A stretch of DNA of 64,000 bases from an uncultured Actinomycetes bacterium (GTDB lineage: Bacteria > Actinomycetota > Geothermincolia > Fen-727 > JACVIW01), in contig CAKZLU010000029.1 in NCBI GenBank assembly GCA_937127245.1, positions 67,502 through 131,501 on the forward strand. Direction: 5' to 3'. Positions 31,281-33,341 of the stretch are shown here, one piece after another. The first letter of the stretch is position 1, and every line of letters begins with the position of its first letter. Both the position numbers and the translations under genes were made by a program. The notes beneath the pieces are model-generated. The model was given only the letters and a program-made list of their open reading frames with translations, did no database searches and had not been told where the DNA came from.

Positions 31281-33341
31281 ATGTCAGATAAGAACTTAGA
31301 TTTTAGCTATACCACGGTTCCCACTATCTGTCCCTACTGCGGAACAGGTTGCGGGATGCTTCTCGAAGTTATCGGGGGAAAAATATCAGGCGTGCTTCCC
31401 ATGAAAGGGCACCCGGTATCCGACGGTTGTCTCTGCCTGAAAGGCTGGACGGCGCACGAGTTTGTCTCATCTCCAGACAGACTTGCCCGCGCGCTTGTGG
31501 GTAAGGATGGAGATTTCAAGGAGGTCGGATACACCGAAGCTGTTGCGCTCGTGGCAGATGCGATGCGCGAAACTGTTGAGAATCACGGCCCTGACAGCTG
31601 CGCTTTTGTCGCATCGGCAAGATGCACCAATGAAGAGAATTATTTGATGAGTAAACTTGCGCGTTTCGCGGTGGGCACAAACAACATAGATCACTGCGCG
31701 CGTTTGTGACACAGCCCAACGGTCGCCGGTCTGGCGACGGTGTTCGGTTCTGGTGCTATGACAAACTCGATAGGTGAGCTATCGGATGCCGATGTAATTT
31801 TGCTGACAGGATCGAACACCAGCGAACAGCACCCGGTCATTGCGGGGAAGATATTGGACGCGGTCCGGAAGGGCGCGAAACTGCTCATATTCGACCCTCG
31901 CATCATTCATCTTACCTCATTTGCTCACATGCATTTACGGCAAAAGCCGGGTACGGACATAGTCTGGATAAACGCTTTAATGAAAGTGATCATTGATGAG
32001 GACCTCCTGGACAGAGAGTTCGTAAACTCAAGAACCGAGGGCTTTGAAGAGCTTTCGCGTTCGCTGGAAAACTATTCTTTGGAGCGCGCGGCTGAAATAT
32101 GCGGAATAGAAGCTTCAGACCTCAGGGAAGCGGCGAGGATTTTCGCAATGGCTGACAAGGCGTCGATAGTCTATTGCATGGGGATAACTCAGCACGTTTT
32201 CGGCACCAGGAATGTACTGGCACTCGCTAACCTCGCGCTGTTGACAGGAAACGTTGGCAGACTCTCCACCGGTGTAAATCCGCTCCGCGGCCAGAACAAT
32301 GTGCAGGGAGCTTGCGATGTGGGGGCGCTTCCAAATGTTCTTACTGGTTACCAGAAGGTTGACGACGATGTTGCGAGGGGGAATTTTGAAAGCGCCTACG
32401 GAAAGAAACTACCTTCAAAACCTGGATTGACTCTTATTGAAATAATGAACGCTTGTCTTGAGGGAAAGATCAAGTTTCTCTACATAATGGGTGAAAACCC
32501 GATGATAACCGAGCCGGATTTAAAGCACGTCGAAGAAGCGCTCTCGGCGGTTGATTTTCTGGTGGTTCAGGACATATTTCTTACCGAAACCGCCAGGCTC
32601 GCTCACGTGGTGCTTCCTGGTAGCTGCTGGGCGGAAAAGGACGGTACATTTACGAACACGGAGCGTCGGGTTCAAAGAATAAGGAAAGCTATCGATCCCC
32701 CCGGAGATGCCAGACTGGACTGGCAGATCATCTGTGACATAGCGAAAGCTTTCGGTTCAGATTATTTCGAATATTCTTCTGCCGAGGAGATATTTGACGA
32801 GATAGCGAAATTAACTCCCTCGTACTCGGGGATGAGTTATCAAAGGCTTTCCACGCAAGGTTTGCAGTGGCCGTGTCCTTCAGTTGACCATCCGGGCACC
32901 GTTTACCTGCACGAGACAGGTTTTGCAAGGGGTAAAGGACTTTTCAGCGTGGTTGAATACGATCCCGAATCTCAGAAGCTCGAAGAACACTATCCTTTCG
33001 TGCTCATGACTGGCAGGGTAGGATTTCAGTATCACTCCGGAACGATGTCCAGACGTTCACGCGCGCTCGCGCGTGAGGTACCCGAAGCTTACGTCGAGAT
33101 CAGTCCTCAGGATGCGGCAAGACTCGGTATTTCAGATCGAGATAAAGTAAAAGTTGTAAGCCCCAACGGCGAGCTCACCGTCCGCGCATTTGTTACTGAA
33201 AGGGTTCGTCCCGGCGAGATATTCATTCCTTTCCACTTTTCTGAAGCTCCCGCGAACATACTTATAAACAGCAGAGAGCTTGACCCACAAAGCAAGATAA
33301 CCTCAATGAAGTTTTGTCCGGCGAGGATAGAGAAGGCATAA
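31281..33341 (+). CDS. fdhA: Formate dehydrogenase alpha subunit (molybdopterin oxidoreductase), selenocysteine-containing; in-frame TGA at 31707..31709
   Basis: The N-terminal Fe-S motif is CPYCGTGCG...C. ORFs 31266..31709 and 31740..33341 share one frame, joined by a single TGA. It sits in the canonical [14 protein letters not shown] motif (compare E. coli FdhF VCHxRxCHGPSVA with U140). Molybdopterin-binding and C-terminal cap regions follow. Confidence 0.85.
31710..31745 (+). promoter_or_regulatory. SECIS-like hairpin immediately 3' of the UGA (stem GTCGCC/GGCGAC 31722-31727/31733-31738, apical loop GGUCU)
   Basis: Read from the sequence. The hairpin starts about 13 nt after the UGA, and its apical loop contains GGUC, as in bacterial SECIS elements. 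Confidence 0.55.

Follow-up and report, generated by a model that had tools for sequence, protein, structure and literature searches.

A probable selenocysteine codon and its hairpin in the fdhA gene of a bacterial Fdh-MvhD-Hdr gene cluster

Described formate dehydrogenase systems and the interrupted fdhA gene

The catalytic residue that ligates molybdenum or tungsten in formate dehydrogenase is either selenocysteine (Sec) or cysteine, and the selenocysteine insertion sequence (SECIS) of the fdhF type is a textbook example. We examined the gene for a formate dehydrogenase catalytic subunit, fdhA, in a 64,000-nucleotide (nt) stretch of DNA from an uncultured Actinomycetes bacterium (GenBank assembly GCA_937127245.1, contig CAKZLU010000029.1, positions 67,502 to 131,501; the whole stretch is referred to as the window), in which an in-frame TGA is followed by a short hairpin. 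Judged from the sequence comparisons described below, fdhA is very probably a single gene whose UGA codon 143 is read as Sec by means of a bacterial SECIS lying inside the open reading frame (ORF). The locus is a new yet ordinary case of the known fdhF-type arrangement of Sec and SECIS. FdhA is the most widespread family of bacterial selenoproteins (PMC9312934).

In the FdhH protein encoded by E. coli fdhF, Sec occupies the homologous residue and is followed directly by the catalytic histidine, and the SECIS immediately follows the UGA within the ORF. Over the first 27 nt from the UGA onwards, E. coli fdhF and the window are almost the same, and the loop is made from the same Gly-Leu codons (GGU CUG). 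The two elements differ, however, in the stem, which in the window is a continuous 6-bp helix with a 5-nt loop and lacks the bulged U17, as well as in the sequence 3' of the loop; the E. coli element scored 17.3 bits on the covariance model that we built for the clade of the window FdhA. The genetic setting differs as well, in that FdhH is part of formate hydrogenlyase whereas the window FdhA is encoded with Hdr and MvhD genes.

The latter genes recall the archaeal Fdh-MvhD-HdrABC complexes (PDB 9t1s, 7bkb and 8rvu), because genes for homologues of HdrA, HdrB, HdrC, MvhD and FdhB adjoin the window fdhA. Unlike the archaeal systems, the window belongs to a bacterial host, as seen from a class II CCA enzyme, Fpg, HisKA kinases and the ORF-internal SECIS; its FdhB-like protein comprises the Fe-S part only, its HdrA-like protein of 1055 amino acids (aa) has an extra NAD(P)-binding module, and the archaeal relatives of FdhA among the matches listed are of the Cys type. 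A bacterial counterpart is found in Desulfobacterium autotrophicum HRM2, where hdrA or hdrL is followed by mvhD, fdhB and fdhA and four cytoplasmic FdhA proteins are selenoproteins (PMC2702500). The window locus is comparable to these HRM2 loci, but it comes from another phylum, and HdrA and MvhD of HRM2 are often selenoproteins whereas the only in-frame TGA of the window cluster is that of FdhA.

The initial annotation of the window, made from the sequence alone, had described two fdhA fragments in the same frame separated by nothing but a TGA, and this is what we found: the ORFs at 31266..31709 and 31740..33341 share one frame, and the TGA at 31707..31709 is the sole stop between them. The likely start is the ATG at 31281, which has a Shine-Dalgarno sequence, GGAGA, upstream, agrees with the public call of a 142-aa gene, and places 142 codons before the TGA. 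When the frame was read through and Sec was written as C, the product matched the NCBIfam Fdh-alpha family (TIGR01591) over profile positions 1-672 with 823 bits, compared with a cut-off of 666.25. The fragments scanned singly covered positions 1-128 and 130-672, so that exactly one position, 129, was left unfilled as the slot for the TGA. Within the read-through protein the Pfam domains follow the order PF04879 (Molybdop_Fe4S4), PF00384 (Molybdopterin) and PF01568 (Molydop_binding).

The UGA stands at the catalytic Sec/Cys column of the family. In a global alignment with the E. coli fdhF product (MG1655 record; 41% identity), the TGA fell on Sec140, residues U143, H144 and R336 of FdhA aligned with U140, H141 and R333 of FdhH, and the Fe-S cysteines C17, C20, C24 and C52 aligned with C8, C11, C15 and C42; K44 was also conserved. 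The closest solved relative, chain 9t1s_L (E = 1e-221), carries a non-standard residue (printed X) at this column, and chains 7qv7_S and 7bkb_D carry Cys. Cys was likewise present in 119 of 119 full-length homologues recovered by protein search, a list that is biased to Cys forms because gene callers split the Sec forms. The claim of the initial annotation that the residues flanking the TGA match the Sec/Cys active-site motif is therefore borne out. The window gene itself has been split in this manner in the public gene calls (L001-L003), which give two products of 142 aa (31281..31709) and 527 aa (31759..33341). We detected no twin-arginine leader in the FdhA N-terminus, from which we take the protein to be cytoplasmic.

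An interrupted frame of this kind could have arisen from a sequencing or assembly error that turned TGC or TGT into TGA, given that Cys is one base change away and is in fact encoded by an orthologue 76% identical to FdhA. The initial annotation had itself named such an error as a possible objection. The 151 nt around the TGA were, however, identical in three separately assembled data sets (GCA_036733065.1, contig DAINBG010000001.1; JGI 3300010288; and JGI 3300025104), and the Cys-type genes do not have the hairpin with its GGUCU loop, both of which are perfect in fdhA; we regard an error as vanishingly improbable. A genetic code in which TGA is a sense codon was rejected, because TGA terminates 21 of the 42 Pfam-supported genes of the window and is the commonest true stop. 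The TGA of fdhA is also the only one in the window that has long open flanks not antisense to another gene; the other in-frame TGA candidates lie antisense to real genes and were discarded.

The codons that follow the TGA bear on whether fdhA is one gene or two. The orthologue mentioned above (P0001, locus L087, on an ERZ6864471 contig) lies in a syntenic cluster with the order hdrC-hdrB-hdrA(1055 aa)-flpD-fdhB-like-fdhA-aminotransferase, as in the window, but has TGT (Cys) where the window has TGA. Over the 10 codons after the site the peptides are identical, and the genes show nine synonymous and no non-synonymous differences, a pattern indicating that the codons just after the fdhA UGA are translated and under purifying selection. 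One could envisage instead a truly split gene, in which the TGA terminates a 142-aa Fe-S domain protein and translation of a second, catalytic polypeptide begins at GTG 31740 or ATG 31759; start codons are indeed available downstream of the TGA, and gene callers picked the second of them. The 10 codons that differ only synonymously come after the TGA but before the first start codon available downstream and are therefore translated in the fdhA frame, which argues against such a split. Moreover, neither the catalytic Sec/Cys nor the His would be part of the downstream product, and no split form occurred among the 119 full-length homologues; we consider a true split extremely unlikely.

The hairpin after the UGA and its maintenance in TGA loci

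The initial annotation had also placed a hairpin with a 6-bp stem and a GGUCU loop about 13 nt after the UGA, and we recovered it at 31722..31738 (Table 1), with 12 nt between the UGA and the stem, which begins at the 13th nt. Numbered from the U of the UGA, the helix is formed by nt 16-21 and 27-32 and the loop by nt 22-26. The element has the register of the E. coli fdhF SECIS, and the loop residues G23 and U24 coincide in the two, in keeping with the proposal that it sits where bacterial SECIS elements are found. On both strands of the window we counted 54 perfect hairpins with a 6-bp stem and a 5-nt loop, and just the one in fdhA has the loop GGUCU. Given this number of similar structures, the hairpin alone is unremarkable and the decisive evidence is comparative. 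A second combination of TGA and hairpin, on the minus strand near 10834, was rejected since it is out of frame within a peptidase gene and chance alone would produce about one such combination.

A scan of species-representative genomes yielded at least 80 FdhA loci at 50-57% identity from many phyla. Homologous sites from the matches listed were compared at 79 loci, the window included, with TGA in 43 and TGC or TGT in 36. Among the matches listed, 42 species other than that of the window thus have TGA here, and every match that is recognisably archaeal is of the Cys type. The TGA and the Cys groups hardly differ in the peptide that follows the site (T-V-A-G-L-A-A/T), so that what the comparison brings out is selection acting on the RNA. 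Two residues beyond Sec/Cys, most Sec forms carry Ser (U-H-S) and most Cys forms Ala (C-H-A).

Two pairs of the helix, 18-30 and 21-27, each link two synonymous third-codon positions. Pair 18-30 was complementary in all 43 TGA loci, as GC, UA, AU or CG, but in only 14 of the 36 Cys loci (Fisher p = 1.9e-10); pair 21-27 was complementary in 43 of 43 TGA loci, as CG, AU or UA, and in 20 of 36 Cys loci (Fisher p = 3.4e-7). The complete helix (6/6 pairs) was present in 41/43 TGA loci compared with 1/36 Cys loci, and the loop GGUCU in 40/43 and 3/36, respectively. U24, which occupies a synonymous position of the Gly codon, was retained in 42 of the TGA loci and in seven of the Cys loci. These results show that compensatory synonymous changes preserve the hairpin together with its GU-containing loop just where the codon is UGA.

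The same distinction was seen when the alignments were compared with shuffled versions of themselves. In the TGA alignment 99.2% of the cells were paired, against a shuffle mean of 81.7%, with 34 cells changed on both sides, and the covariation score was 0.518 compared with 0.187 after shuffling. None of 500 shuffles matched the TGA alignment in percentage paired, in double-change cells or in covariation score, and controls in which the helix was slid along the alignment were all at most 63% paired. The Cys alignment, in contrast, was 66.7% paired against a shuffle mean of 66.0% and could not be distinguished from its shuffles.

Covariance models led to a similar picture. A permissive Rfam scan detected SECIS_3 at the site with 49.3 bits (E = 1e-9 to 7e-11) over the full model (1-59), with the UGA at model positions 4-6, although several of the lower-helix pairs of the model are non-canonical at the window site. 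Permissive SECIS_3 matches were also obtained for seven of seven other TGA loci tested, all of them sub-threshold (44-56 bits), and for none of seven Cys loci, the syntenic orthologue among them. On the covariance model of the clade, which was built from 40 TGA loci with the window left out, the window site ranked first among all sequences searched (54.2 bits) and the Cys loci scored 11-52 bits; nothing else significant was found with this model in the window or its flanks.

The orthologue P0001 illustrates the difference at close range. Its FdhA is 76% identical and its post-site peptide identical to that of the window, but synonymous changes (GTCGCTGGGTTGGCAACA) break the hairpin, the loop reads GGGUU, and the site scores 30.4 bits on the clade model, compared with 54.2 for the window. 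One could imagine that the locus records a recent switch between Sec and Cys, with gain or loss of a SECIS at synonymous sites between syntenic orthologues of this identity, in an Fdh-Hdr cluster of unusual composition (an FdhB cut down to its Fe-S part and a 1055-aa HdrA with an added NAD(P)-binding module) that could represent a form of formate-driven electron bifurcation not described before; we put this forward tentatively and think it rather doubtful. The lineage concerned is probably anaerobic and branches deeply within the Actinomycetota.

The Cys codon of the nearest orthologue, together with the two fragments of 142 and 527 aa given by the public callers, might also be taken to mean that the TGA is a nonsense mutation in a decaying pseudogene. 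The stop, however, falls precisely on the catalytic Sec/Cys column, and 42 further species among the matches listed have TGA at the same codon. Both halves of fdhA are intact and jointly exceed the curated family cut-off, the hairpin that is specific to TGA loci is perfectly kept, and the sequence is identical in three assemblies; decay of the gene is in our estimation exceedingly improbable.

Arguments against Sec decoding and a proposed mechanism

Several observations weigh against decoding of the fdhA UGA as Sec. The initial annotation had suggested folding the region, and the hairpin did form in the 54 nt that we folded; the fold was nevertheless no more stable than those of shuffled sequences (z = -0.35). 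At gathering thresholds Rfam gave no match anywhere in the window, and the SECIS_3 score of 49.3 bits misses the gathering score of 63, so we file the element as a sub-threshold relative of SECIS_3 and not as a curated member. Across the FdhA clade there is little conservation in the lower helices of the minimum-energy fold, the apical helix alone being supported. Within that helix, four of the six pairs are largely fixed by the peptide VAGLA(T/A), which explains why the Cys loci average 4.0 of 6 pairs, and the independent evidence consists mainly of the two wobble-wobble pairs and loop position 24.

The window element also lacks the bulged U17 of the E. coli SECIS, its U17 being paired with A31. 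A bulged U17 below the apical helix is a determinant for SelB in E. coli. In all 43 TGA loci U17 is paired with A or G, and the bulge is a species-specific detail of E. coli that lies outside this FdhA clade.

A further point on the same side concerns the genes for Sec insertion. No selA, selB, selD or tRNA-Sec was found in 84 kb (the window and 10 kb on each side): Pfam revealed no SelA, SelB or SelD homologue among all window ORFs of at least 150 aa, ARAGORN detected no tRNA, tRNA-Sec included, in the window or the flanks, and tblastn with E. coli SelA, SelB and SelD gave no match in all 1.2 Mb of collected loci. Absence from 84 kb is what one would expect if the genes are unlinked. The initial annotation had stated that the organism has this machinery, encoded outside the window; the second half of the statement agrees with our searches, and for the first half we infer from the maintained UGA and SECIS that sel genes are located elsewhere in the genome.

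As no sel genes were found in the 84 kb, the UGA might be read through as a residue other than Sec, either by near-cognate suppression, giving Cys or Trp, or by Cys carried on tRNA-Sec, with the hairpin being a relic or a pause signal. That relics can exist is suggested by two Cys-type loci with near-intact hairpins: L012:8418-8465 has 5/6 pairs, the loop GGUCU and 52 bits on the clade model, and L023:8406-8453 has 6/6 pairs, the loop GGUUU and 47.8 bits. It may be that these two Cys-type fdhA genes have changed from Sec to Cys recently. At the fdhA site of the window both wobble pairs and U24 are nonetheless maintained perfectly, arguing for ongoing selection on recognition by SelB, and general suppression would be costly where TGA is the main genuine stop. 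We judge non-Sec read-through to be very unlikely.

Decoding of UGA 143 as Sec would be directed by the 6-bp GGUCU hairpin within the coding sequence. If decoding proceeds as in E. coli fdhF, SelB carrying Sec-tRNA(Sec) would bind the hairpin through its C-terminal domain, and the tethered ternary complex would compete with release factor 2 once the UGA reaches the ribosomal A site, presumably leading to the incorporation of selenium into FdhA.

In two contigs from other species we observed TGA and TGC paralogues of fdhA within a few kb of each other (L040:1028 and L040:8409; L081:3944 and L081:7251). Similar pairs, in which Sec and Cys forms back each other up, are known in other anaerobes.

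The Hdr-MvhD-Fdh gene cluster and the meaning of the locus

The genes for an Fdh-MvhD-HdrABC system adjoin one another at 24942..33341, with fdhA as the last gene of a co-directional cluster, and the same order is repeated in L087 (Table 1). FdhA probably passes electrons from formate to an electron-bifurcating complex of the flavin-based Hdr type, a role suggested by the gene order and by the solved archaeal Fdh-Hdr complexes.

Table 1. Coordinates of fdhA, its recoding features and the adjoining cluster genes in the window
Feature	Position	Strand	Description or support
hdrC-like ferredoxin subunit	24942..25487	+	Pfam 4Fe-4S dicluster; NCBIfam QmoC/HdrC, under cut-offs
hdrB-like, CCG domains	25484..26362	+	Pfam CCG E = 3e-25; TIGR03288 176 bits, under cut-off
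hdrA-like flavoprotein, 1055 aa, added NAD(P)-binding module	26499..29666	+	PDB 5odc_A HdrA E = 3e-191
mvhD/flpD-type iron-sulfur subunit	29663..30172	+	Pfam FlpD E = 2e-52; NCBIfam VhuD and HdrA2 C-terminus
fdhB-like iron-sulfur protein, 268 aa	30311..31117	+	9t1s_M E = 1e-30; 7bkb_E E = 1e-28
fdhA	31281..33341	+	cytoplasmic formate dehydrogenase catalytic subunit; 686 aa by predicted read-through, probable Sec at residue 143
in-frame UGA (probable Sec143)	31707..31709	+	alignment to E. coli FdhH Sec140 and to the catalytic Cys of homologues
SECIS apical hairpin (predicted)	31722..31738	+	stem GUCGCC 31722..31727 / GGCGAC 31733..31738, loop GGUCU 31728..31732
Rfam RF01989 (SECIS_3) match extent	31704..31762	+	sub-threshold, full model 1-59

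The HdrA-like protein scored 974.7 bits on NCBIfam HdrA2, for which the cut-off is 1100, and contains two matches to Pfam Pyr_redox_2 together with Fer4. Its second FAD/NAD(P)-binding Rossmann module spans approximately residues 613-743, and the protein has the same length in L087. The FdhB-like protein, whose GTG start at 30311 has GGAGGA upstream, matches just the C-terminal Fe-S part (approximately 231-376) of archaeal F420-dependent FdhB and is shorter than full-length F420-type FdhB (about 380-414 aa); it had no NCBIfam match, and its first ~100 residues belong to no recognised family. The possibility that flpD and the fdhB-like gene are fused through a TGA was rejected, because the two share a frame but are separated by several stops. 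Between them a 40-codon ORF (30169..30291, +) starts at an ATGA overlap with the flpD stop; it was called in L001 and not in L087, and is probably not a real gene. A scan for promoters and terminators gave a number of sites no higher than in shuffled sequence.

Upstream of the cluster lie genes for an 881-aa glycyl-radical (PFL-like) enzyme (16555..19200, -) and for a 1155-aa protein with PHP, TIG and DUF5719 domains (20998..24465, -), the latter of which adjoins the cluster in L087 too. The nearest named relatives of an amidase (36499..37917, +) and of the CCA-adding enzyme (14921..16336, -) are from metagenome-assembled genomes of Actinomycetota or Ca. Geothermincolia, at 52-68% identity, which tentatively suggests a deep-branching anaerobic actinomycetotal lineage. 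Pfam gave no match for the long ORFs at 61418..63943 (+, 841 aa), 40228..41157 (-, 309 aa) and 41351..42241 (-, 296 aa).

The locus leaves the current understanding of Sec decoding unchallenged. The 43 TGA and 36 Cys sites, which encode the same peptide, constitute a clean natural experiment in which the SECIS of FdhA is kept purely via synonymous positions, and they provide a simple rule for parting the Sec from the Cys forms of this FdhA clade, namely the two wobble pairs and U24. As annotated at present, the public assemblies miss an intact selenoprotein, and metabolic reconstructions based on them would mis-score both the formate metabolism of the organism and its dependence on selenium.

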